This document shows positions 1 through 27,069 of a stretch of DNA of 34,032 bases, one piece after another. Where the stretch lies: IMG/VR virus record IMGVR_UViG_3300027742_000026; one strand, written 5' to 3'. Position 1 is the stretch's first letter. Every line of letters begins with the position of its first letter. The stretch comes from a virus. The notes beneath the pieces were generated by a model. That model ran no database searches. It was not told the DNA's origin and saw only the letters and a program-made list of their open reading frames with translations. Made by a program: the position numbers and the translations under genes.

Positions 1-99
1 CACATCCAAACATTAAACCAGAGCCAAAAAAGAGAAAGCCCAGAAAAGTCACAAGAAAGAGAAAGAGAGTATCTCAAAAGAAAATGGACAACAAAGACC
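1..99. repeat. Terminal 99-bp block identical to 33934-34032 (circular-contig overlap or short direct terminal repeat)
   Basis: Direct comparison: the first 99 nt (cacatccaaacattaaacc...caacaaagacc) recur exactly as the last 99 nt of the window. Confidence 0.95.
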
Positions 100-209
100 A
101 ATTGATTGAGTTTATCAAATGGGTGTATGAGTTGGATGATGAGGAGATATGTTCTGATGGTTGGAAATCCAAAATAATCACAAAGGTACAATCACTGTTC
201 ACAAAATAA
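3..209 (+). CDS. Hypothetical protein, C-terminal part of the junction-spanning gene that starts at 33638
   Basis: The frame is open from the window start to TAA at 207-209. It continues the ORF running off the 3' end once the 99-bp overlap is collapsed (about 168 aa in total). It contains a basic KKRKPRKVTRKRKR stretch. Confidence 0.6.
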   Translation, partial: HPNIKPEPKKRKPRKVTRKRKRVSQKKMDNKDQLIEFIKWVYELDDEEICSDGWKSKIITKVQSLFTK

Positions 210-216
210 CAATCGT

Positions 217-846
217 ATGATAGATTGTAATGTGGCAGGAATAGAAATAACAAAAAAAATGAGTGTGAAAGCAAAAGAGTGGACAGACATCAAAGCACCC
301 AGAATCACACAGCATTTTACTCAGAAAAGAATCAGCAAGAAAGAAAGTATTTTCATGGCATCACTAGGGGAGATTGCATTTTGTGAGATGATGGATATTG
401 ATTGGGAGAGCAGAAAGATAGAGAACAAACCAGACATTGATGCAATCACCAACAAAGGAAAGATAATGGAAATCAAAACATATTCAGTCCCCAGTCCCTA
501 TTTTGAGAAACTGATTAGGAATGAATTGGATAATGATGACCTATATGGCAGATGTTTGTTTTTAGAGAAACAGGCACATGAGTTGGGAATATGTGACTAT
601 GTATTTTGGGGAGTGTTTCAAGACCATGAGTATAATGTTTGGTATCCAATAGGATACATGTCATCTCATGATATATTGGAAAGATATACAGCCCAGACAC
701 ATGTTTGTGATGGGAGAGTAAAACTCCCACAGATTGCATTTACAGTGGGAAATCAAGATGTTAGGAAACTCAGAAAATGGTACAATATAGCAGATGAGGA
801 TATCAACATACAGCAAGGGCAAAGCATGGAAAAGGGGCAAGTGTGA
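217..846 (+). CDS. Putative PD-(D/E)xK-fold nuclease
   Basis: 209-aa ORF. Motif order GEIAF ... PDIDAI ... MEIKT fits the E / D / ExK arrangement of restriction-endonuclease-like nucleases. An alternative ATG at 259 has an A-rich leader. Confidence 0.45.
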   Translation: MIDCNVAGIEITKKMSVKAKEWTDIKAPRITQHFTQKRISKKESIFMASLGEIAFCEMMDIDWESRKIENKPDIDAITNKGKIMEIKTYSVPSPYFEKLIRNELDNDDLYGRCLFLEKQAHELGICDYVFWGVFQDHEYNVWYPIGYMSSHDILERYTAQTHVCDGRVKLPQIAFTVGNQDVRKLRKWYNIADEDINIQQGQSMEKGQV

Positions 847-1099
847 GGTGTGTGACAGAATGAGATGGTTGTGTCAGCACCATATAGATGGCAGGAAAAA
901 TACAGGGGAGGTGATTTGGGTTTGTAGTAATGGGAAAACAAATGTATTATACCCAGATGCATGTCATCAGAAAATACATAATCCAACAGCATTTGGATTG
1001 CCAAGCACTTGGGCATATGACAATGGTTATCTCAGGAGATTAGATAGTAAATACAGACCAAAGAAAAAGGGAAACAAAAAATGGCAAATCAAAAAGTGA
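794..1099 (+). CDS. HNH endonuclease
   Basis: Sequence CEVCDR...CQHHIDGRK...VIWVC...CHQKIH gives the two Cys pairs and the HH/H of an HNH (beta-beta-alpha-Me) finger. It overlaps the upstream ORF by 53 nt in the +1 frame. Confidence 0.8.
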   Translation: MRISTYSKGKAWKRGKCEVCDRMRWLCQHHIDGRKNTGEVIWVCSNGKTNVLYPDACHQKIHNPTAFGLPSTWAYDNGYLRRLDSKYRPKKKGNKKWQIKK

Positions 1100-2040
1100 A
1101 AACATTTGGGATATATCATGAGTGGATACCAAGAGTTGGGGGCATTGAATCAGCAGTGTTTAATTTGGGCAAAGCAATGGACAAGGTAGGATACAAAGTC
1201 ACAGTGTATTTTGCAGGTTGTGAGAGTTGGGAAAGTTTATTCAAGTATGCACAGATTGGTGATGTGGTGAAATTACTCCCAGACCATAAAGAGGGTCAAT
1301 TCAAAGAGGATGTCCTATTGATAGCATCCAATCATTATATGCCCAAGACTATCAAGGCAGGCAGATATTTGCAGTGGGTTCATAGTGACTATGACAAATA
1401 CAAGTTAGATTTGAGAAACAAGGGTCAGGTTGAGTACATAGCAGTGAGCAAACATGCAAAAAAGGTTATTGAGAGGAGAGAGAAAATCAAGGCAAAGGTG
1501 ATATACAATTTGATTGATGATGATTTTGGTACAGATGACAGAGAGGTTTTGAGATTTGTGACAAACAGTAGAGTCAGCCCAGAAAAGGGATTTGACAGGA
1601 TGATATTATTTGCAGAGGCACTCAATGATGCAAATGTGAGATATGTTTGGACAGTGTATGGGGACAACAGTGTTTCTCCCAAGTATTTTGAGGATTGGCA
1701 GAGAAAGTTCAGACATCTCCCACAGGTTCATTTTGTAGGATACAAACCAGACATCACAGTGGGATTGGAGAATGCCACATACAGTTGTCTATTTTCAAAC
1801 TTTGAGGGTTGTCCATATTCTGTATTGGAGTCACTCAAATTAGGAGTACCCTGTTTGGTGACAGATTGGTTGGGTGTGGATGAGTTGATTGATAATGGGG
1901 TCAATGGGTATATATTGCCAATGGACATGAAATTGTCCAAGTACAAAATCAAAAAGATACTCAAAGAGATACCAAAGTTTGAATACAAACCATTGTCCAC
2001 AGTGAAAGATTGGGTTAAAATTATTGAAAAAAAGAAATGA
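1081..2040 (+). CDS. Glycosyltransferase, GT-B fold family 1 (GT4-like)
   Basis: 319 aa. The C-terminal signature is SPEKGFDRMI...FSNFEGCPYSVLESLKLGVPCLVTD...LIDNGVNGYILP (E-x7-E motif). The stop overlaps the next start (ATGA). Confidence 0.85.
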   Translation: MANQKVKTFGIYHEWIPRVGGIESAVFNLGKAMDKVGYKVTVYFAGCESWESLFKYAQIGDVVKLLPDHKEGQFKEDVLLIASNHYMPKTIKAGRYLQWVHSDYDKYKLDLRNKGQVEYIAVSKHAKKVIERREKIKAKVIYNLIDDDFGTDDREVLRFVTNSRVSPEKGFDRMILFAEALNDANVRYVWTVYGDNSVSPKYFEDWQRKFRHLPQVHFVGYKPDITVGLENATYSCLFSNFEGCPYSVLESLKLGVPCLVTDWLGVDELIDNGVNGYILPMDMKLSKYKIKKILKEIPKFEYKPLSTVKDWVKIIEKKK

Positions 2041-2987
2041 AAAGACTAGGAATAGAAAGACATAACATAGAGGACATGCACTCATATTTCTTTCACAACA
2101 TCAAGATTGTGGATATGGATTACATTGCACAGGTGCAACAGGAAATCAGAGATGAGCCAAAGATTGAAAACTCCTTGTATTATCAGGGCATCATGGATAA
2201 TTTGAGAAAGTATGGAAAGGTGTTTGGTTCAATAGTGACAAAGAGGGATGCCAAAGCAAGGTTTGACCAATTCAGGCAGTTGGTGAAATCCATTGCACAT
2301 GATTACAGACCAGAATGGGACTATGAAATGCAGGAGGGATTACCATATGGGGCAATCACAGGGGTGCAAAGGGATGGAAAGATATTGATTGTGGATGGTC
2401 ACCATAGGTTGGCAATACTGTATGCATTAGGATACAAGAGGGCAGATGTGTTGGTATTTGATGAGAATGGGTTTTGGTATCAGGACAGATATCCAGTGGA
2501 TATGAAATTAGACATGATTGACTATAATTGGAAAGACAAAAGGGTGTTGGACTTGGGGTGCAATTTGGGAGATGTTGGAAAGTATGTAATGGACAGAGGG
2601 GCAATTGAGTATGATGGAGTGGACACAGATGAGGCATACATCAAAGAGGCAAAGATTAGACACCCAGAGATGTCACTATCATTTCATTTATTAGATGCAG
2701 AGGTTGGCACAAAGATGTTTTCAGAGACAAATGTAGTGGTTGCATTGGGATTGTTTCACCATATGCCAAACAAGGCAGTCAAGAATGTGATTGATAGTTG
2801 CAAGGGAGACATTATATTTGAATGCCCAACAGGAGAGAAAGAATATTCAGAATATAGGGTCAGGACAAGACAGTGGTATTTGGATTTGATGTTGTCAAAA
2901 GGGTATCATGTGAGAGTGATGGAGAGTGGTATGCCATTGGACAAGTCATATCCATTTGAGAGACTAACTTTTATCTGTACAAAATAG
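2037..2987 (+). CDS. ParB/sulfiredoxin-like N-terminal domain fused to a class I SAM-dependent methyltransferase
   Basis: ILIVDGHHRLAILYALG is the ParB/Srx-type motif. VLDLGCNLGDVG...EYDGVDTD...VVVALGLFHHM gives Rossmann methyltransferase motif I, post-I and later motifs. No (D/N/S)PP(Y/F) or PCQ DNA-methyltransferase motif was seen. Confidence 0.75.
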   Translation: MKRLGIERHNIEDMHSYFFHNIKIVDMDYIAQVQQEIRDEPKIENSLYYQGIMDNLRKYGKVFGSIVTKRDAKARFDQFRQLVKSIAHDYRPEWDYEMQEGLPYGAITGVQRDGKILIVDGHHRLAILYALGYKRADVLVFDENGFWYQDRYPVDMKLDMIDYNWKDKRVLDLGCNLGDVGKYVMDRGAIEYDGVDTDEAYIKEAKIRHPEMSLSFHLLDAEVGTKMFSETNVVVALGLFHHMPNKAVKNVIDSCKGDIIFECPTGEKEYSEYRVRTRQWYLDLMLSKGYHVRVMESGMPLDKSYPFERLTFICTK

Positions 2988-2988
2988 A

Positions 2989-3141
2989 ATGGTGACACTC
3001 AGGGTTAGAAAAAAATACAATGATTTGGAAAGAAATCAATTGATGACAATTGGAATGGACTTTGAGGTGACAGTAGAAAGAGCCAGACTTTTAATGGAAA
3101 AGGGGTTTGTTGATATAATCAAAATTGAAAAAGTTGTATAA
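2989..3141 (+). CDS. Small hypothetical protein (50 aa)
   Basis: Hand-translated ATG..TAA ORF: MVTLRVRKKYNDLERNQLMTIGMDFEVTVERARLLMEKGFVDIIKIEKVV. It is below the track's size cut-off. Codon style matches the genome and it is tightly packed after the upstream stop. Confidence 0.4.
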   Translation: MVTLRVRKKYNDLERNQLMTIGMDFEVTVERARLLMEKGFVDIIKIEKVV

Positions 3142-3299
3142 TGAAAACAGGGAAAATCATACCATACAAGATTGATGGAAAATATTACATTATGATGTTT
3201 GGCAGAGAGTACGAGTTAATTTTAGGAAAGGCAACAGATGGGAAAGTCCAAAAAGAAAGTAGCCAAAAAGCCACAAGGGAAAAAATCCCTATGGCATAA
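3141..3299 (+). CDS. Small hypothetical protein (52 aa)
   Basis: Hand-translated ORF MKTGKIIPYKIDGKYYIMMFGREYELILGKATDGKVQKESSQKATREKIPMA. Its start overlaps the previous stop (TAATG). Confidence 0.35.
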   Translation: MKTGKIIPYKIDGKYYIMMFGREYELILGKATDGKVQKESSQKATREKIPMA

Positions 3300-3549
3300 A
3301 GTGGTTGGGTGGTTTAGAAAATAGTTTGTTAATATATAGGAAATGATAAAGTATCAAGCACATAGAGAGAAAATTGCTAAAGAAAGAAAAGAATCAAGAA
3401 AAATAGCACATTGTGGGTGGGTACATTAGGCGAGAAATCAGGGTACTGTTATCACAACGGAAACAGTAGGTGTTCATTTACCTCACAAGCCCACAAAGGT
3501 TTCTGATGGTGCAAGTCCATCCCCATCCAAATCAGTTTGATACCATTTG

Positions 3550-3558
3550 TGATATAAT
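3550..3558 (+). promoter_or_regulatory. Possible extended -10 promoter (TGATATAAT) ahead of the packaging genes
   Basis: TGnTATAAT matches at 3550-3558, with no good -35 hexamer at 17-nt spacing. Confidence 0.3.
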
Positions 3559-3717
3559 TACATAACTGTATACAAAACTACAACAGGGGATAGAGTAGAG
3601 TAGGGGAGGGGAGTTTGTATTGAAAACACAATGTTTTTGGTCAAATATCCCAAAATATGGTATATACAATTGAGAGTAGGGGATATTGATATATTTAACC
3701 TATAAACAGCAATTATT

Positions 3718-4032
3718 ATGGGACTGATACTAACAGAATCACAAGCAGATAGTCAGGGCAAAACAGGAAAGGAATCAGTGATTGAAAGTTTTTCAAAAGA
3801 GATGTTGTTGGTTGCATATGATGAGGAGGATGTGGTTGCAGACTACAAGAGACTCAAAGACAAATTGGCAGACCCAACCATATCAAACAGAGATTTTGCA
3901 TTATTGTTGAGATTGGCATGGGATTTCAGATTGCCAAGACCAAAACAGGGGTTGGATGTCACAAGTGAGGGAAAGTCTATATCAGGATATTCATTTGAGA
4001 TAGTCAAACCAAAAGATGATAAAGACAGTTAA
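3718..4032 (+). CDS. Putative small terminase subunit (by position)
   Basis: 104-aa ORF that overlaps the start of the large terminase. It follows a long non-coding region containing direct repeats. No diagnostic motif was recognised. Confidence 0.4.
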   Translation: MGLILTESQADSQGKTGKESVIESFSKEMLLVAYDEEDVVADYKRLKDKLADPTISNRDFALLLRLAWDFRLPRPKQGLDVTSEGKSISGYSFEIVKPKDDKDS

Positions 4033-5230
4033 AGTCACAGGAGTTTATGAAAAGACAGTTGAGGCATCCAAGAAATACAAGATAATATTGCATGAGGGTG
4101 GGTCAAGGTCATCCAAGACATGGAGTATATTTCAGTTTTTTTTAGGAAAGGCAATTGCAGGAGAGTGTATCACTGTCACTATTGTGAGAGATAAACTCAC
4201 ATGGATTAAAAGTACCCTACTCAAAGATTTTCAGGAAATTGTCAAACTGATGGAGTTGGATGTATTGCCAGATGTCAACATCAACAGACCAGAACAGACC
4301 TATTACATCAATGGGAGTGAGTTTGCATTCTATGGATTAGACTATGCAGAGAAATTACATGGGAGGACACAAGATTGGTTTTGGGGCAACGAGGCAATGG
4401 AGATTGCAAAGAAACATTTTGACCAGTTGGAAATGAGAACAAAGATTGGAGGGATATTGGACTACAATCCATATGATGATATGCATTGGGTGTTTGATTT
4501 ACAGAAAAGACCAGATGTGACAACTATCAAGTCAACCATGTTGGACAATCCATTTTTACCAGAGAGCATCAGGACAAAAATCAAATCCTATGAGCCAACA
4601 GAGAACAATATTGCACAGGGTACAGCAGATGAGTTTATGTGGCAGGTGTATGGACTAGGAAACAAGGCAAGATTACAGGGGACTATATTTAACAGTTGGG
4701 ATATTGTGGAGACCATACCAGAGGATGCCAAATTGCTTGGAATGGGATTGGACTTTGGATATACCAATGACCCAACAGCATTGGTTGAATTATACAAATA
4801 CAACAATGAGATATATTTCAATGAGTTGATATATGAAACAGGAATGTTAAACAGTGACATTGCCCAGAGAATGAAAGACTTGGATGTGAATGGATACACA
4901 GATATTTATGCAGACAGTAGTGAGCCAAAGAGTATTGAGGAGATTAGGAGACATGGTTTCAATATCAGGGGTGTGGACAAGGGTTCAGATTCAATCAACT
5001 ATGGAATTGATATAATGAAATCATACAAGATGCATATCACAAGAAAGAGTGATAATATGGAAATGGAGTTGAGGAGATACAAATGGGCAGAGGACAGGGT
5101 TGGAAAGATACTCAACAAGCCAGTGGATGCATTCAATCACTGTATTGATGCAGGGAGATATAGTGTGATGATGTTATTAGGAAAGCAACCAGAGATTCAG
5201 ATATTCAACAAAGAAAGATTTGGTTTGTAG
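4016..5230 (+). CDS. terL: Large terminase subunit (PBSX / Terminase_3-like)
   Basis: Walker A-like GGSRSSKT. Nuclease-domain motifs MGLDFGYTNDPTALVE, IYADSSEP and HCIDAGRY are in the order typical of this family. Confidence 0.92.
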   Translation: MIKTVKVTGVYEKTVEASKKYKIILHEGGSRSSKTWSIFQFFLGKAIAGECITVTIVRDKLTWIKSTLLKDFQEIVKLMELDVLPDVNINRPEQTYYINGSEFAFYGLDYAEKLHGRTQDWFWGNEAMEIAKKHFDQLEMRTKIGGILDYNPYDDMHWVFDLQKRPDVTTIKSTMLDNPFLPESIRTKIKSYEPTENNIAQGTADEFMWQVYGLGNKARLQGTIFNSWDIVETIPEDAKLLGMGLDFGYTNDPTALVELYKYNNEIYFNELIYETGMLNSDIAQRMKDLDVNGYTDIYADSSEPKSIEEIRRHGFNIRGVDKGSDSINYGIDIMKSYKMHITRKSDNMEMELRRYKWAEDRVGKILNKPVDAFNHCIDAGRYSVMMLLGKQPEIQIFNKERFGL

Positions 5231-5274
5231 GTTTGTGATATTATATAAATATAATTTTTGAATCAAAAATACAT

Positions 5275-6591
5275 ATGTTTACAGTACCAGAGGAAAAGTC
5301 ACTGTCAGTTGAATTGATTGAGGATGCCATCAAGTATAATGAAAAGGACAGGAGCAGGTTTGATACATTAGAAAACTATTACAGAGGAGAGCATCCAATA
5401 CTCAAAAGAAAGAAACCCCCAACAGCCAAGAACAGCAGGATTGTGGTTAATCATGCCAAGTTCATTACAGACACCAATGTGGGGTATTTGCTAGGGTCAA
5501 CACCATCATACACAGTTGCAGATGAGAAATATGACATTGCCCCAATCATGGATGAGTACAAAAGGCAGACTATATCAGACACAGACCATGAGATTGCCAA
5601 AGATGTATCCATATTTGGGAAACAGTATGAATTGATTTACAACATAGAGAATGAGGTCAAGTCAAAGGACATAGATGTCAGGAATTGTATTTGTGTATAT
5701 GATGACACAGTAGAACACAAAAAAATGTTTGGAATCATTTACAAACTAGGGAAACAAAAAGATGAGTTTGAGAACATTATTGTATATGATAATGAGTCCA
5801 AGTATGAGTGTGCAGTGGACAAAAAGATTGTGATTGATTCAGAGCCAGAAAAACATTTGTTTGAGAAAGTCCCTATCATTGAATATAGAAACAACAGTGA
5901 GATACAGGGTGATTTTGAACAGGTGGTATCTCTCATTGATGCATACAATCTGTTGCAATCAGACAGAATCAATGACAAAGAGCAGTTGGTTGAGGCAATT
6001 TTGGTTGGGTATGGGGTCAAGTTAGAGAAACCTCAAATGTCAGAATTACTCACAGACAGGACATTGTTTGGATTACCAATCAACTCAAAAGTTGACTATC
6101 TCATAAAGCAAATGGATGAGGGTCAGGTTGATATATTGAGAAAGACTTTGGAGAATGATATCCACAAGATATCCATGACACCAAACATGAGTGATGAGCA
6201 GTTTATTGGCAATGCCAGTGGGGTTGCTATCAAGTACAAATTGCTATTGTTTGAACAGAATGTGACCAACAAAGAGAGGTATTTTGAAAAGGGTTTGTTG
6301 GAGAGGTTTGAGTTATATAACAACTATTTGATAAACATCAAAAAGAGTGTTGAAATCCCATTGTATGAGGTGGATGTGGTGTTCAAGAGAAATCTGCCAC
6401 AAAATGATTTGGAGATATCCCAGATGATTTCAAATCTGTCACCATACATTGATGATGAGACATTGGTTGAGAGACTATCATTTATTGGGAATCCATCAGA
6501 GGTGGTGGAGAAAAACAAGGCAGAGGACAGAGAAAAACAAAAGTTTGTTGCCAGACAGTTTGGTGAGGCACAAATTAGTGAGACATTGTAA
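5275..6591 (+). CDS. Portal protein (SPP1 gp6-like)
   Basis: 438 aa, immediately after terL. The N-terminal YYRGEHPILKR motif, the size and the position before a MuF-type gene are all typical. Confidence 0.85.
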   Translation: MFTVPEEKSLSVELIEDAIKYNEKDRSRFDTLENYYRGEHPILKRKKPPTAKNSRIVVNHAKFITDTNVGYLLGSTPSYTVADEKYDIAPIMDEYKRQTISDTDHEIAKDVSIFGKQYELIYNIENEVKSKDIDVRNCICVYDDTVEHKKMFGIIYKLGKQKDEFENIIVYDNESKYECAVDKKIVIDSEPEKHLFEKVPIIEYRNNSEIQGDFEQVVSLIDAYNLLQSDRINDKEQLVEAILVGYGVKLEKPQMSELLTDRTLFGLPINSKVDYLIKQMDEGQVDILRKTLENDIHKISMTPNMSDEQFIGNASGVAIKYKLLLFEQNVTNKERYFEKGLLERFELYNNYLINIKKSVEIPLYEVDVVFKRNLPQNDLEISQMISNLSPYIDDETLVERLSFIGNPSEVVEKNKAEDREKQKFVARQFGEAQISETL

Positions 6592-24942: not shown

Positions 24943-26046
24943 ATGGCAGACAGCAAGTTGCAAGAGTTGACAAAAATCACAACTCCCCAAAATGATGATT
25001 TACTGTATGTTGTGAGAAATGAAAATGGAACATACACAGACAATCAGATTGCAAAAAGCAATCTCATACCAGATGTGGATGTACCCAGTGATATGTCAGA
25101 ATTGACAGACACCACAGGGGTGATACCCAGTGATGTGTCAGAATTAGCAGACAGTACAAATGTAATACCAAAGGATGTGTCAGAATTGACAGATAGTACA
25201 GATGTGATACCAGAGGATGTATCAGAATTGACAGATACAACGGATGTGATACCTAGTGATGTTTCAGAATTGACAGACAGTACAAATGTAATACCTAGTG
25301 ACATATCAAGCAATGTTTTACTATTAAACAACACAACAGAGTTTACACCAGATGCAGACTACGAACCATCAACCAAGAAATATGTTGATGACAATGCAGG
25401 TGGGACAGTAGTAGACAGGATATATGAGGCATATACATTTGAGGATATGGGGGACAATAATGTGTACTACAAAACTGTGAGTGGTTCAGGGAGTTTGGCA
25501 CTCACACACAAAAATGCAGGGGTTGAATTGCAAATCTCAACAACAAATGGTTCATATGTAGAATTGAAACCAACAAACAGGATGACAGGGAGAAACCTGT
25601 GGAATTGCAACCCAGTATGGGGAATTACATTAGCAACACAGGGGTATGGTTGGGCAACACATTGCACATTTGACCTCAATTTTGGTTCAAGTGACATCAC
25701 AGATACAGGGTCATACATGGGATTTAGAATGAATACAGATGACGGAAAAATATATGCACAGAATTGCAATGGAACAACAAGAACAGCAACAGATACAGGG
25801 ATTGTATTTGCATCAACAGGGAATGCATGGATAGGGCATGATTTGGATTGCAAGATGACATCAGGTGAAAAAATAGAGTTCTATATTGATGGTGTTTTGA
25901 AAGCAACACACACAACAAATCTGCCAACAACATCATCTGATACAAAATGGATAGCAAGACTCACAAGGGTTGGTGAAAGTGGGAATCAGTACAATATGTA
26001 TTTGCAAATGGCAAATATCAGTTATGATATGGTTATACCAACATAA
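24943..26046 (+). CDS. Repeat-containing putative fibre / receptor-binding-like protein
   Basis: 367 aa. The N-terminus (LQELTKITTPQNDDLLYVVR) resembles phage fibre anchor regions. It has five and a half 14-aa tandem repeats and a beta-rich C-terminal domain. Confidence 0.55.
   Translation: MADSKLQELTKITTPQNDDLLYVVRNENGTYTDNQIAKSNLIPDVDVPSDMSELTDTTGVIPSDVSELADSTNVIPKDVSELTDSTDVIPEDVSELTDTTDVIPSDVSELTDSTNVIPSDISSNVLLLNNTTEFTPDADYEPSTKKYVDDNAGGTVVDRIYEAYTFEDMGDNNVYYKTVSGSGSLALTHKNAGVELQISTTNGSYVELKPTNRMTGRNLWNCNPVWGITLATQGYGWATHCTFDLNFGSSDITDTGSYMGFRMNTDDGKIYAQNCNGTTRTATDTGIVFASTGNAWIGHDLDCKMTSGEKIEFYIDGVLKATHTTNLPTTSSDTKWIARLTRVGESGNQYNMYLQMANISYDMVIPT
25084..25311 (+). repeat. In-frame 42-nt tandem repeat, 5 full copies plus a partial copy (PSDVSELTDSTNVI)
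   Basis: Copies lie at 25084, 25126, 25168, 25210 and 25252, with a partial copy at 25294. They differ at a few positions. Confidence 0.9.
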
Positions 26047-26064: not shown

Positions 26065-27069
26065 ATGACAACATACTACTACTCATCATTGTTCAAGAAA
26101 AGTGATGTGAGAATAACACAGGGGTACAAGATAACTCACAAGGCATTGGATTTATCAAGAGGGGTTGTCAGACAGCCAATATATTCTCCCAACAAATTGG
26201 GTAGTGGTACTGTGTCAAGAGTGGATACATCCTATGTATCAGGTGGCAAAACATACACAAACACATTGGTGGTATGGGTCAAGTATGACAATGGTATGAC
26301 AATGAAAATGTATCATGGACAGGTCAATGACAAAGTGGTCACTAAAGGGAAAAGAGTTTCAGTTGGACAACAGATATACAGAACAGGCAACACAGGATAT
26401 TCATTTGGAGACCATCTGCATGTTGCATTAGTCAATGCATCAGGTGGGACAGTCAATCCCACAGGATGGTTGATAAATGACAATGTGCCAGTTGCTAGTT
26501 TCAAAGTGGGAGACAAAGTTGTATTCACAGGTATTCAAAATGTCAGAAAGGGTGCAGGAGACAAGTTCAAGATTTTAGAGCAGACAATTGTTGGAGATAG
26601 GGCAACCATCATTGATGGTAGCAGGACAAGTCAAAACGAACAGTTTGGATTAGGAGAGGATGACTCATACACATGGTGGGATGTAAAGTTTGCAGGGGGA
26701 GGTACAGGTTGGATGGCAGATGTGGGAAAGTTCAAAATTGATACAGATGTCCCAGAGAGTCCCCAGTCGCCCTCAGAGGAGAGTGAATATCAAAAACAGA
26801 TAGAAACACTCAAAGGGCAATTGAGTGAATGTGAGGGGGCACTAGAGAATGCACAGGCAGATGTTTTGGGGGTGAGTGAGTCATTGGAGTTGGTCAAAGT
26901 GGAGAGAAATGAGTTCAAGAAAAAATTGGATAATATGACAATTGAGAAAAACACGATTGAAAATCAGTATAATGAAACGAAAAAAGAGTTGGATGAGTTG
27001 AAAGAGGGCAGAGATGATTGGATAAACAGATTAGCAGATATGTTGCATAAACTATTTGGAACGAAATAG
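26065..27069 (+). CDS. Endolysin: M23 metallopeptidase + SH3-like domain + C-terminal coiled coil
   Basis: HKALD (HxxxD) and GDHLHVAL (HxH) are M23 motifs. The middle FKVGDKVVF...WWDVKF...GWMA region is SH3b-like. The last roughly 95 aa are heptad-like and rich in E/K/L. Confidence 0.85.
   Translation: MTTYYYSSLFKKSDVRITQGYKITHKALDLSRGVVRQPIYSPNKLGSGTVSRVDTSYVSGGKTYTNTLVVWVKYDNGMTMKMYHGQVNDKVVTKGKRVSVGQQIYRTGNTGYSFGDHLHVALVNASGGTVNPTGWLINDNVPVASFKVGDKVVFTGIQNVRKGAGDKFKILEQTIVGDRATIIDGSRTSQNEQFGLGEDDSYTWWDVKFAGGGTGWMADVGKFKIDTDVPESPQSPSEESEYQKQIETLKGQLSECEGALENAQADVLGVSESLELVKVERNEFKKKLDNMTIEKNTIENQYNETKKELDELKEGRDDWINRLADMLHKLFGTK

Follow-up and report, generated by a model that had tools for sequence, protein, structure and literature searches.

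A modular phage cassette pairing a GT4-type glycosyltransferase with a ParB/sulfiredoxin-fold methyltransferase fusion, a candidate system for adding and tailoring a sugar

The window analysed here (34,032 nucleotides, IMG/VR record IMGVR_UViG_3300027742_000026) holds a complete circular phage genome of 33.9 kb with a 99-nt terminal repeat. In it, a glycosyltransferase (GT) gene is followed by a gene encoding a fusion of a ParB/sulfiredoxin (Srx)-type N-terminal domain (N-domain) and a methyltransferase domain (MT). A gene-neighbourhood survey found about 35 related phage and metagenome loci carrying this cassette in modular form. Its composition follows clear rules: a GT4 glycosyltransferase, an optional DUF115 gene, a ParB/Srx-like or P-loop partner, and a dedicated methyltransferase. 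This modularity, with fusion and fission of domains and variants containing P-loop kinase-like, DUF115 or deacetylase components, was missed by the earlier note on this DNA and is the main new information. The chemistry of the cassette we infer from family resemblance and gene neighbourhood; with about an even chance, the locus represents one version of a modular phage system for attaching a sugar and subsequently tailoring it.

Gene layout

The GT ORF (319 aa) and the fusion ORF (2037-2987, 316 aa) overlap by ATGA, as the earlier note had stated. That note had also described a tightly coupled module, and conservation confirms it: in each of the relatives (L001-L004, L007-L009) the GT gene lies next to the fusion gene or overlaps it, and overlapping or abutting GT/partner junctions recur in L001, L007 and L023. 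The two small ORFs downstream (Table 1) also have counterparts elsewhere. Homologues of phrog_933 lie directly after or inside the cassette in L007, L010, L012, L016, L023, L042, L044, L046 and L055, and homologues of the 52-aa ORF (33-46% identity) were found in L006, L007, L010, L014 and L015. The cassette is located between a PD-(D/E)xK-like ORF plus an HNH gene on one side and the terminase on the other. The neighbourhood resembles the 5mYOX/ParB gene clusters described in PMC13229309.

Table 1. Features of the cassette region (positions in the window)
Feature	Position	Strand	Description
GT	1081..2040	+	predicted glycosyltransferase, GT-B fold, CAZy GT4-type, 319 aa; cassette core
ATGA start/stop overlap, GT/fusion gene	2037..2040	+	sequence read directly: ...AAG AAA TGA / ATG AAA
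N-domain, aa 1-145	2037..2471	+	predicted divergent ParB/sulfiredoxin fold; invariant DGHHR; family-specific helical insert aa ~27-99
MT domain, aa ~146-316	2472..2987	+	predicted class I SAM-dependent methyltransferase; distinct small subfamily; Methyltransf_25/12/23/11
Small conserved ORF, 50 aa	2989..3141	+	phrog_933 (function unknown), E=8e-7; travels with the cassette
Second small ORF, 52 aa	3141..3299	+	often downstream of the cassette; putative member

Glycosyltransferase

The GT matches Pfam Glycos_transf_1 above the gathering score (E=4.5e-17, 62.6 bits, cut-off 26.4), with further matches to Glyco_trans_1_4 (4.6e-14) and, at the N-terminus, Glyco_transf_4 (1.3e-6). The EX7E motif reads E242-GCPYSVL-E250, both glutamates being invariant among 28 homologues. 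By sequence this is a member of CAZy GT4 (Pfam Glycos_transf_1), predicted to be a retaining enzyme of the GT-B fold. The earlier assignment as a GT1-family glycosyltransferase holds for the activity but not for the family, as "group 1" of Pfam is CAZy GT4 and not CAZy GT1. The family contains about 85 homologous clusters, every one on contigs of at most 41 kb.

Profile searches place this family closest to the TarM/SdgB/GtfA clade. The best PDB matches of the family profile are TarM(Se) (4.5e-19), SdgB-type 7ec1 (5.4e-14), TarM (8e-13), BshA (5e-12) and Gtf1 (8e-11); PglH/PglA are matched besides BshA. The best NCBIfam matches are SdgB (1.9e-11) and SdgA (9.4e-11), both far under the cut-off (for SdgB, 43 bits against 800). 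The clade O-glycosylates Gram-positive wall teichoic acid or Ser-rich(-repeat) proteins, as O-GlcNAc transferases (SdgA/SdgB, PMC3794999). TarM, SdgA-SdgB and GtfA (Gtf1) are cytoplasmic retaining GT4 enzymes acting on hydroxyls of polymeric acceptors, and the phage GT is like them in the GT-B fold and the EX7E motif. However, it is shorter (319 aa against about 490-505 aa) and has no inserted DUF1975 beta-domain, and the alignment with TarM is limited to the donor-side half (query 101-287, TarM residues ~268-457).

Methyltransferase domain

The C-terminal part of the fusion matches Methyltransf_25 above the Pfam cut-off (E=4.5e-8, 34.1 bits, cut-off 27, aa 170-255). The motifs quoted in the earlier note, VDGHHRLA, VLDLGCNLG (aa 170-178), GVDTD (aa 194-198) and LGLFHHM (aa 237-243), are all present, and motif IV reads ALGLFHH. 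The glycine-rich motif I and the acidic residue at the end of beta2, together with the structure model, identify a predicted class I SAM-dependent methyltransferase. Its subfamily has the conserved motifs YQD, FE(V/C)PTG and SGM...YPF...C and comprises 55 clusters of homologues, most of which are stand-alone and 167-181 aa long.

The PDB profile matches are ToxA/XrdM, 3g5l, WbdD (5e-4), MePCE (4e-3), phosphoethanolamine methyltransferases and BamL. Foldseek matches many class I methyltransferases at E of about 1e-8, including ChlM, CmoB, PMT, Hen1 and TleD; of the listed or ranked structural matches, more than 1000 in number, none is a DNA methyltransferase. The fusion contains no DPPY, NPPY, DPPF, SPPY, PCQ or ENV motif and no Pfam match to N6_N4_Mtase, MT-A70 or C5 DNA_methylase, and a tblastn search of 50,697 deposited phages gave no relative. 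Sequence and model thus support the earlier view that this Rossmann part, with no DPPY- or PCQ-type motif, is not an N6/N4 or C5 DNA methyltransferase. In sequence and fold it is like class I enzymes that act on small molecules, sugars or phosphates.

The earlier note had also held that ParB fusions in phages are normally to N6/N4 methyltransferases. Such fusions are indeed common, but ParB-fold fusions to Methyltransf_23-type domains have already been catalogued (PMC12704722), and therefore the architecture seen here is not unprecedented. The catalogued phage proteins are of the same architecture class, a nucleotide-binding ParB-CTPase fold joined to a Methyltransf_23/25-type domain. That survey began from PF02195, which misses the N-domain considered here, and presumed DNA methylation. 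In contrast to those fusions, the present MT has no DNA-methyltransferase features, is co-inherited with a GT4 gene, occurs fused and split in both orders, and shares its partner domain with a CE4 enzyme.

ParB/sulfiredoxin-fold domain

The motif VDGHHRLA occupies aa 119-126 of the fusion (nt 2391-2414), and its DGHHR core is almost invariant across the family representatives. Pfam ParB_N (PF02195) gives no match to the N-domain at E<=1; the only Pfam match is GmrSD_N (E=0.009-0.014). The PDB profile matches, ParB nuclease 5k5d (0.07), SerK (0.25) and SbnI (1.5), are all aligned at "livDGHHR", and the NCBIfam SerK match (5e-5; 22.5 bits against a cut-off of 380) covers the motif region alone. 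A structure model (pLDDT 82) gives about 32 top Foldseek matches in PDB, nearly all to Srx, SerK, ParB, SbnI, Noc and PadC (E 0.036-1, probability at most 0.99), and in BFVD most named matches are "ParB/Sulfiredoxin" (E 2.5e-3 to 0.1, probability up to 1.0). The matches are consistent though individually non-significant; with these marginal statistics the earlier proposal of a ParB/sulfiredoxin-type domain probably holds at the level of the fold.

The top sequence and fold matches belong to the enzymatic branch of the superfamily, SerK, SbnI and sulfiredoxin. With these proteins the N-domain shares a strand-DGHHR-helix phosphate-binding motif ("IVDGHHR" in SerK), and none of them has HTH or dimerisation domains. 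Likewise, the HTH and C-terminal dimerisation domain of canonical ParB are absent from the N-domain, whose 145 residues run straight into the MT. On the other hand, only about 70 residues superpose on SerK, SbnI or Srx (TM 0.25-0.38). The N-domain carries a helical insert of 70 residues, is without the substrate domains found in SerK and SbnI, and does not reach a whole-protein match above the NCBIfam cut-off to either kinase. According to PMC12704722, ATP is bound by ParB-fold proteins fused to SAM methyltransferases, and the same fold serves as the ATP module of SerK, SbnI and Srx.

The N-domain family is rare, with 76 matches (73 credible) among 1.84 billion protein representatives. Stand-alone versions have 137-164 aa, and a separate gene of 138-143 aa occurs in L006, L023, L058 and L063. 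The proteins of both families, N-domain and MT, are acidic, with a median pI of about 5.3-5.5. As evidence against a DNA acceptor this is weak, since an acidic pI is also seen in the 5mYOX-type ParB-like protein of L005.

Variants of the cassette

The N-domain is almost always paired with this MT subfamily. The fused N-MT order is found in the window, P0133, P0146, P0152, P0159 and P0225, and the reverse fusion in P0121, P0141 and L060. Separate genes occur in the order N then MT (L006, L023, L016, L044, L058, L059) or MT then N (L063), and L061 contains tandem duplicated N/MT pairs. The GT adjoins the pair wherever the flank is visible. In one case (P0123/L056) the N-domain is fused to a CE4 polysaccharide deacetylase beside the same GT family.

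Other loci contain additional or substituted genes. A DUF115/MptE-like gene is added in L010, L012, L014, L015, L042, L047 and L048. In L013, L042, L054 and L055 the N-domain is replaced by a P-loop kinase-like protein immediately upstream of the MT. This protein has the Walker A motif GLSCQGKT and an invariant HTD; its nearest relatives are Nrk1, CMP kinase and gluconate kinase, all weak matches. In L056 the CE4-fused N-domain and a P-loop kinase-like gene co-occur, which weakens the idea that the N-domain is the equivalent of a kinase. L057 has the order sugar-epimerase-like fragment, MT-N fusion, GT, and the Pfam census of neighbour genes includes an NAD-dependent epimerase.

Proposed function and possible acceptors

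The cassette would act in two steps. As its family membership suggests, the GT4 enzyme would use a UDP-sugar as donor and transfer its hexose or N-acetylhexosamine to a polymer hydroxyl. The fusion would then serve as a two-part tailoring enzyme; here the genomic association is observed, and the chemistry is predicted. The MT half would methylate either the sugar itself, once attached, or a phosphate that it carries. The ParB/Srx half would be the obligate nucleotide-triphosphate-binding partner of the MT, most likely binding ATP; its role would be phosphotransfer, as in SerK, SbnI and sulfiredoxin, or that of a nucleotide-gated activator or a substrate handle.

Of the three acceptors proposed in the earlier note (virion protein, host surface glycan, DNA), DNA seems unlikely; indirect evidence slightly favours the hydroxyls of a polymer other than DNA. 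More likely, the sugar would be placed on a virion protein, or on a polymer in the cell wall of a Gram-positive rumen/gut Clostridia-type host. In the window, a candidate acceptor is a 14-aa Ser/Thr/Asp-rich repeat (5.2 copies) encoded by the ORF 24943-26046. Glycosylation of virion proteins is the function of mycobacteriophage (Che8/Corndog-type) cassettes containing GT and O-methyltransferase genes, to which phage announcements such as PMC11256854 refer. Those cassettes are similar in that one or more phage-encoded GTs, in some cases together with a methyltransferase, modify proteins of the capsid or tail, and in that they vary among related phages. They differ in GT families and hosts and in having no ParB-fold partner.

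The strongest alternative, in our opinion improbable, is post-replicative sugar hypermodification of DNA: the GT would glycosylate a modified base, the MT would O-methylate the sugar, and the ParB fold would enable work on double-stranded DNA, by analogy with the role of ParB176 for the dioxygenase 5mYOX176. Indeed, one phage ParB that has no DNA-binding domain activates a DNA dioxygenase when the substrate is dsDNA, and 5mYOX clusters co-occur with GTs (31%), ParBs (27%), terminases, endonucleases, O-methyltransferases, kinases and epimerases (PMC13229309). BshA-, MshA- and PglH-like GT-B enzymes, to some of which the present GT is similar (BshA, PglH/PglA), glycosylate 5hmC in phage DNA (bioRxiv 2023.12.21.572611). 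The nuclease and terminase neighbours of the window cassette fit this reading. So do a canonical ParB_N-like gene and a JGT-like TAGT glycosyltransferase gene right after the cassette in L005/L006 (TAGT Pfam match of L005, 1e-20), a canonical ParB-like gene beside it in L063/L064, and the location of the GT among replication and recombination genes in L010, L041 and Butyrivibrio phage Arawn.

Known clusters for sugar hypermodification of phage DNA combine a C5-methyltransferase/5mYOX or ThyS homologue with a GT and, in some cases, ParB, O-methyltransferase or kinase genes (bioRxiv 2023.12.21.572611, PMC13229309, PMC13326640). The present cassette is like them in its GT-B enzyme, ParB-like element, methyltransferase and kinase-like variants near terminase and nuclease genes, and in its modular, fast-evolving character. 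However, the acceptor-generating enzyme is not detectable: in the complete genome (Pfam and PHROGs, ORFs of at least 80 aa) there is no TET/JBP dioxygenase, thymidylate-synthase (ThyS/ThyA) homologue, C5-methyltransferase or DNA kinase, and the larger orphan ORFs have no credible HxD...H signature. Within the same detection range, the absence of any nucleotide hydroxymethylase or kinase claimed earlier was confirmed; a few small orphan ORFs have no assignment, and a very divergent 5mYOX could still be encoded. For a pre-replicative route, the genome likewise lacks both a phage-encoded DNA polymerase and genes of nucleotide metabolism. The census of neighbour genes covers 25 Pfam families, and relatives may still encode a divergent dioxygenase.

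Instead of tolerating restriction sites, the genome totally avoids GATC (0 observed, 111 expected), GGCC (0 and 39) and CpG (observed/expected ratio 0.04). This is the behaviour of unprotected DNA, which argues that the DNA is not broadly protected. The acidic N-domain also retains only a ParB/Srx core of about 70 residues, most like the SerK/SbnI/Srx branch and with no DNA-binding HTH, and it occurs fused to a polysaccharide deacetylase.

The connection of a DNA modification with the extreme CpG avoidance, suggested in the earlier note, was rejected, since other cassette-bearing phages do not avoid CpG. Ratios of 0.01-0.04 are limited to the window and its L001-L004 relative; the values are ordinary in L007 (0.59), L009 (0.45), L023 (0.52) and L044 (0.59), and GATC is near expectation in L023 and L044.

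The preferred reading, a sugar added to a polymer other than DNA and then tailored, has a more specific version, which we consider somewhat less probable than the DNA alternative: a ParB/Srx kinase would phosphorylate the sugar and the MT would methylate the phosphate or a neighbouring hydroxyl, so that a methyl-phosphate type cap would terminate or mark the glycan. The model is WbdD, an established bifunctional enzyme with kinase and methyltransferase modules, which act on the terminal sugar of the E. coli O9a O-antigen and so cap this glycan (PMC3482155). The four loci with a P-loop small-molecule-kinase-like protein before the same MT subfamily, the ParB/Srx-fold phosphotransferases nearest to the N-domain, and the phosphate-methylating WbdD and MePCE among the MT matches are consistent with it. 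However, the MT matches WbdD and MePCE no better than many unrelated class I methyltransferases, both kinase assignments fall under significance thresholds, the two partners in L056 are not simple substitutes, and the ParB fold may also serve as a non-catalytic nucleotide switch (PMC12704722). The kinase of WbdD is of the eukaryotic-like protein-kinase type and comes with a coiled-coil ruler, whereas the cassette partner has a ParB/Srx fold or is P-loop kinase-like, and Pfam finds no Pkinase-type domain in the cassette. The likeness to WbdD is thus an analogy and not a homology.

A similarly low probability is given to a broader formulation. In it, the ParB/Srx fold would be a recruited nucleotide-dependent subunit of a sugar-tailoring enzyme, either an activator or a sugar or hydroxyl kinase acting ahead of a phosphate- or O-methyltransferase. 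The cassette would then equip a macromolecule with a methylated sugar, possibly a methyl-phosphorylated one; in one version the macromolecule would be phage DNA, modified without a TET/JBP dioxygenase or thymidylate-synthase homologue.

It is still less probable that tailoring takes place at the NDP-sugar level, the ParB/Srx domain holding the nucleotide handle while the MT or deacetylase modifies the sugar before its transfer by the GT. The ability of the ParB-CTPase fold to bind CTP, ATP or GTP (PMC12704722), the joining of the N-domain to two chemically different sugar-tailoring enzymes and the epimerase-like neighbours point in this direction, but known NDP-sugar methyltransferases themselves bind the nucleotide, CE4 enzymes usually act on polymers, and the cassette has no nucleotidyltransferase.

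Finally, an ordinary ParB-DNA methyltransferase (a Dam-like anti-restriction orphan), by chance beside an unrelated GT, is very improbable: fusions of this kind, assumed to be DNA methyltransferases, are common in phages (PMC12704722) and a location upstream of the terminase is typical of such genes, but the motif, Pfam, structural and tblastn searches described above all argue against it, inheritance of the MT strictly follows that of the GT family, and L023, L016, L044 and L060 have separate bona fide DPPY and SPPCP DNA methyltransferases besides the cassette.

Implications

Phage GT cassettes are common in metagenomes, mostly with no known target, and about 65% of phage DNA-GT-like matches have no base-modification partner (published surveys, bioRxiv 2023.12.21.572611). 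The present analysis defines a compact, recurrent cassette of a GT4 enzyme, a partner and a methyltransferase, and gives the rare ParB/Srx-fold family a concrete, testable proposed role as partner of sugar-tailoring enzymes. It also cautions that a phage "ParB-methyltransferase" fusion should not, by default, receive the annotation of a DNA methyltransferase. A DNA acceptor would imply a new acceptor chemistry. If the acceptor is a virion protein or a host wall polymer, phage-directed glycan decoration would extend to phages of rumen and gut Firmicutes.

Composition of the module

The fusion of a ParB/sulfiredoxin-fold domain with a class I SAM methyltransferase is rare, yet its parts belong to a recurrent modular cassette. 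The window contains the two-gene module described in the earlier note: the glycosyltransferase gene (GT, 319 aa) and the fusion gene (316 aa) overlap by ATGA at 2037-2040. However, the label "GT1-family" has to be corrected, as the product is a GT-B enzyme of the Pfam "group 1" (Glycos_transf_1, E=4.5e-17), that is, of CAZy GT4 and not of CAZy GT1. The EX7E motif is unchanged across 28 homologues. In PDB, the profile of these homologues matches best TarM(Se) (4.5e-19), the 7ec1-type protein, presumably of the SdgB type (5.4e-14), and TarM (8e-13), followed by BshA and then Gtf1. Independently of the PDB profile, the top NCBIfam ranks are held by SdgB and SdgA. The TarM, SdgB, BshA and Gtf1 enzymes are retaining GT4 glycosyltransferases that transfer α-GlcNAc or glucose to hydroxyls of teichoic acid, serine-rich proteins or small alcohols. 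Unlike the TarM/SdgB clade, the phage GT has no DUF1975 insert, and it scores far under the subfamily cut-offs of the clade. It is not a member, although its sequence predicts that it works as the members do.

The methyltransferase half of the fusion (MT, residues ~146-316) is a class I SAM enzyme scoring above the Methyltransf_25 cut-off. The DPPY, NPPY and PCQ motifs are absent. The sequence profile matches ToxA/XrdM, 3g5l, WbdD, phosphoethanolamine methyltransferases and BamL, and the fold matches are ChlM, CmoB, PMT, Hen1 and TleD. Neither list contains a DNA methyltransferase. Thus MT lies outside the DNA methyltransferase families, as the earlier note had supposed.

The N-terminal 145 residues (N-domain) are not detected by Pfam ParB_N (PF02195). 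The family profile matches ParB nuclease, SerK and SbnI at the strand-helix "livDGHHR", and the NCBIfam SerK model matches the N-domain at 5e-5 and another family member, P0145, at 1e-6. Since full-length Foldseek is dominated by matches of the MT domain, the N-domain was modelled on its own. Nearly all Foldseek matches of this model (pLDDT 82) in PDB and BFVD are ParB/Srx proteins, superposable only in a core of ~70 residues around a family-specific helical insert. Every single match is marginal taken alone. Together, the profile, NCBIfam and Foldseek support the ParB/sulfiredoxin fold proposed earlier and point to the enzymatic SerK/SbnI/Srx branch as the nearest one. ATP binding is reported for proteins that join a ParB fold to a SAM methyltransferase, and the fold is reported to serve as the ATP module of SerK, SbnI and Srx (PMC12704722); an ATP-using role of the N-domain would fit these reports.

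The cassette in related phages

Full-length homologues of the fusion number five in 5.8 billion clusters. An exhaustive profile search with the N-domain produced 76 matches among 1.84 billion representatives. Three of them, long repetitive proteins aligned in 10-36 stretches, were discounted, and 73 were kept; most matches are stand-alone proteins of ~140 aa. The MT subfamily comprises about 55 clusters. The GT family is wider, with about 85 clusters, none of them on a contig longer than 41 kb.

The survey of gene neighbourhoods in related phage and metagenome loci (L numbers) and homologous proteins (P numbers) shows that GT, N-domain and MT recur as one cassette. N-domain (137-146 aa) and MT (167-181 aa) are adjacent separate genes in L005/L006, L023, L016, L044, L058 and L059; the N-domain of L006 is 43% identical to that of the window (E=6e-34), and in L023 the two genes lie at 10001-10432 and 10433-10969. 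In L063 the genes are also split, MT preceding the N-domain. The fused proteins of L060, P0121 and P0141 have the order MT-N, and further N-MT fusions are P0133, P0146, P0152, P0159 and P0225. Tandem duplicated pairs, in the order N-domain, N-domain, MT, N-domain, MT, are found in L061 (340-2544) and L062 (4200-5352), and the duplication suggests diversified N-domain/MT specificities inside one phage. Wherever the flank is visible, the pair adjoins a GT gene.

In other loci GT stands alone (L046, L041, L045) or with a DUF115/MptE-like gene (L010, L012, L014, L015, L047, L048), whose profile gave no informative match in PDB. The order GT, P-loop kinase-like gene, MT is observed in L013, L054 and L055, and in L042 it is followed by DUF115. 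In the P-loop partner, the Walker A motif (GLSCQGKT) is canonical and an HTD motif is invariant; the protein is only weakly similar to nicotinamide-riboside, CMP and gluconate kinases. The short contig L056 contains GT (52% identical), a small ORF, a fusion of the N-domain with a CE4 polysaccharide deacetylase, and the P-loop kinase-like gene. Another short contig, L057, contains a sugar-epimerase-like fragment, an MT-N fusion and a distant GT4. Nearly all versions of the cassette are accompanied by an ORF of 50-70 aa (phrog_933), and an HNH gene precedes GT also in L023, L016 and L044. The 25 commonest Pfam families listed for 101 non-redundant neighbour proteins are ordinary phage functions and one epimerase. 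Thus GT, N-domain and MT are inherited together as a functional unit, in which the MT subfamily has the N-domain as its near-obligate partner. The remaining modules, namely the CE4 deacetylase, the epimerase, the kinase-like protein and DUF115, belong to carbohydrate-tailoring types.

Proposed role and acceptor

We propose that GT would add a sugar to a hydroxyl acceptor and the fusion would tailor the attached sugar by methylation, its ParB/Srx half providing nucleotide-dependent chemistry or control. Instead of a kinase, the N-domain may be a nucleotide-gated activator or a handle binding the nucleotide part of an NDP-sugar. WbdD consists of a kinase plus a methyltransferase (PMC3482155), and by analogy the N-domain or the P-loop partner could act as the kinase. 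Indeed, the P-loop kinase-like gene precedes the same MT in loci without the N-domain. However, both occur together in L056, and thus the WbdD-like version is held at lower confidence; a simple swap of an N-domain kinase for the P-loop kinase was downgraded for the same reason.

As for the acceptor of the proposed glycosylation, we lean slightly towards a non-DNA polymer, either a virion protein or a host wall polymer. Phage DNA seems unlikely, but is a serious rival. 5hmC in phage DNA is glycosylated by GT-B enzymes resembling BshA, MshA and PglH (bioRxiv 2023.12.21.572611). On dsDNA, a T-dioxygenase is activated by a phage ParB that lacks a DNA-binding domain, and genes for GTs, terminases, nucleases, O-MTs and kinases accompany such dioxygenase clusters (PMC13229309). 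Moreover, ParB_N-like and JGT-like TAGT genes lie directly beside the cassette in L005/L006. On the other hand, all known DNA routes start from a hydroxylated base, which either a TET/JBP dioxygenase or a homologue of thymidylate synthase has to make (for 5hoC, PMC13326640). Pfam and PHROGs searches of the ORFs of at least 80 aa in the whole genome found neither, and the orphan ORFs have no credible HxD...H signature. Genes for a phage polymerase or for nucleotide metabolism are also missing, in agreement with the lack of classic base-hypermodification supply genes claimed in the earlier note. The total avoidance of GATC (0 versus about 111 expected) and GGCC (0 versus 39), with CpG O/E 0.04, is the behaviour of unprotected DNA. 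Finally, the proteins of both the N-domain and the MT family are acidic, and the N-domain partners a polysaccharide deacetylase too.

The ParB_N-like gene (~200 aa) is followed by TAGT (PF20691; DDD and EDY motifs) in L005 (1399-2753), L006 (2307-2936) and L053, Streptococcus phage Javan291 (5405-6756). In these unrelated Firmicute phages the pair lies immediately before the terminase, and the 6 kb around it, in Javan291 as well, show no TET/JBP gene. Judging by sequence, the pair may glycosylate DNA in a ParB-dependent way, with a dioxygenase elsewhere or divergent.

The Ser/Thr/Asp-rich repeat noticed earlier is present at 25082-25301 (5.2 copies of 42 bp / 14 aa, unit VIPSDVSELTDST(D/N)). 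It belongs to a 367-aa ORF between a holin-like ORF and the lysin, with a tail-fibre-like N-terminus and a C-terminal domain without a family match. The product is a possible candidate O-glycosylation acceptor or receptor-binding protein.

CpG and site avoidance

The 46 CpGs of the window are evenly spread, CpA/TpG is 1.54-1.63, and AGCT, TCGA, ACGT, CGCG, GCGC and CCGG are absent. Only the 61%-identical relative L001-L004 (CpG O/E 0.01-0.03) shows the same combination of extreme CpG depletion and CpA/TpG excess as the window. L007 is intermediate (CpG 0.59, TG/CA 1.49, GATC 0). Other cassette phages have CpG O/E typical of the group (L007 0.59, L009 0.45, L023 0.52, L044 0.59), and GATC counts in L023 and L044 are near-expected. 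The cassette is therefore ruled out as the cause of CpG avoidance, a link suggested in the earlier note, and the two are unrelated. The pattern resembles the outcome of methyl-CpG deamination, of strong restriction pressure exerted by the host, or of both.

The cassette phage L023 encodes, at 3655-5655, a C5 cytosine methyltransferase (LYAGIGG...SPPCP) that is unusually short (212 aa) and adjoins a 443-aa DPPY N6/N4 methyltransferase. Thus DNA methylation in such phages is performed by separate conventional enzymes.

The phage genome and its host

The first and last 99 nt of the window are identical (1-99 and 33934-34032) and point to an assembly that closes into a circle, so that the genome is complete at 33,933 bp. 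Its genes are those of a small siphovirus, and every long ORF is on the + strand.

Features of the window
Feature	Coordinates	Strand	Remark
ORF spanning the circle junction, 167 aa	33639 -> 209	+	basic KKRKPRK stretch; counterpart is a 171-aa gene in L001
Orphan, 209 aa	217-846	+	PD...EIK arrangement; conserved only in L001 and L007
Cys/His-rich HNH-like ORF, 101 aa	794-1099	+	overlaps 209-aa orphan; directly upstream of GT
GT	1081-2040	+	cassette
Fusion	2037-2987	+	cassette
phrog_933 ORF	2989-3141		cassette
TerL	4016-5230	+	packaging
SPP1-type portal	5275-6591	+	structure
MuF protein, 1836 aa	6608-12118	+	structure
Repeat-containing ORF	24943-26046	+	
M23 peptidase + SH3 lysin	26065-27069	+	lysis
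Orphan, 206 aa	30264-30884		
Replication initiator, Rad52, Ros/MucR protein, SprT		+	replication/accessory genes

Residues 624-758 of the MuF-like minor capsid protein match an ADP-ribosyltransferase exotoxin domain (PF03496, E=2.2e-14). It is a fusion of the MuF-toxin type, probably packaged or ejected. The orthologue of L001 has 1032 aa and that of L007 at least 1414 aa, and thus the C-terminal cargo is variable. The two orphans had no match in Pfam, PHROGs, NCBIfam and PDB sequence searches; the residue arrangement of the 209-aa one suggests a PD-(D/E)xK nuclease. The promoter/terminator scan of positions 1-4200 gave nothing above chance on the + strand. The coding strand is strongly purine-biased (A 12,526, G 8,236, T 8,471, C 4,799). 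GC skew, taken over successive 2-kb segments, stays between +0.15 and +0.35 with no reversal anywhere, which fits all genes sharing one strand.

The M23/SH3 lysin points to a bacterial host, probably Gram-positive, and rules out an archaeal (methanogen) host, raised by the CpG depletion. Neither megablast with 8 kb of the window nor tblastn with the fusion protein gave matches among 50,697 deposited phages; the lineage has no cultured close relative. The only deposited phages with a match to GT are the Butyrivibrio phages Arawn and Idris (30% identity); among cultured phages, these rumen phages are the closest ones to encode a related GT. The paper describing Arawn and Idris does not mention this GT.

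Phage GT cassettes, ParB-fold-Methyltransf_23 fusions, and glycan capping by kinase plus methyltransferase are already known kinds. Something much more novel would hinge on the acceptor, and we consider it quite improbable. What is new is the recognition of a divergent ParB/Srx family undetected by PF02195, the way in which this family pairs, as if by rule, with a dedicated non-DNA methyltransferase subfamily in a GT4 cassette, and the modular variants of this cassette.
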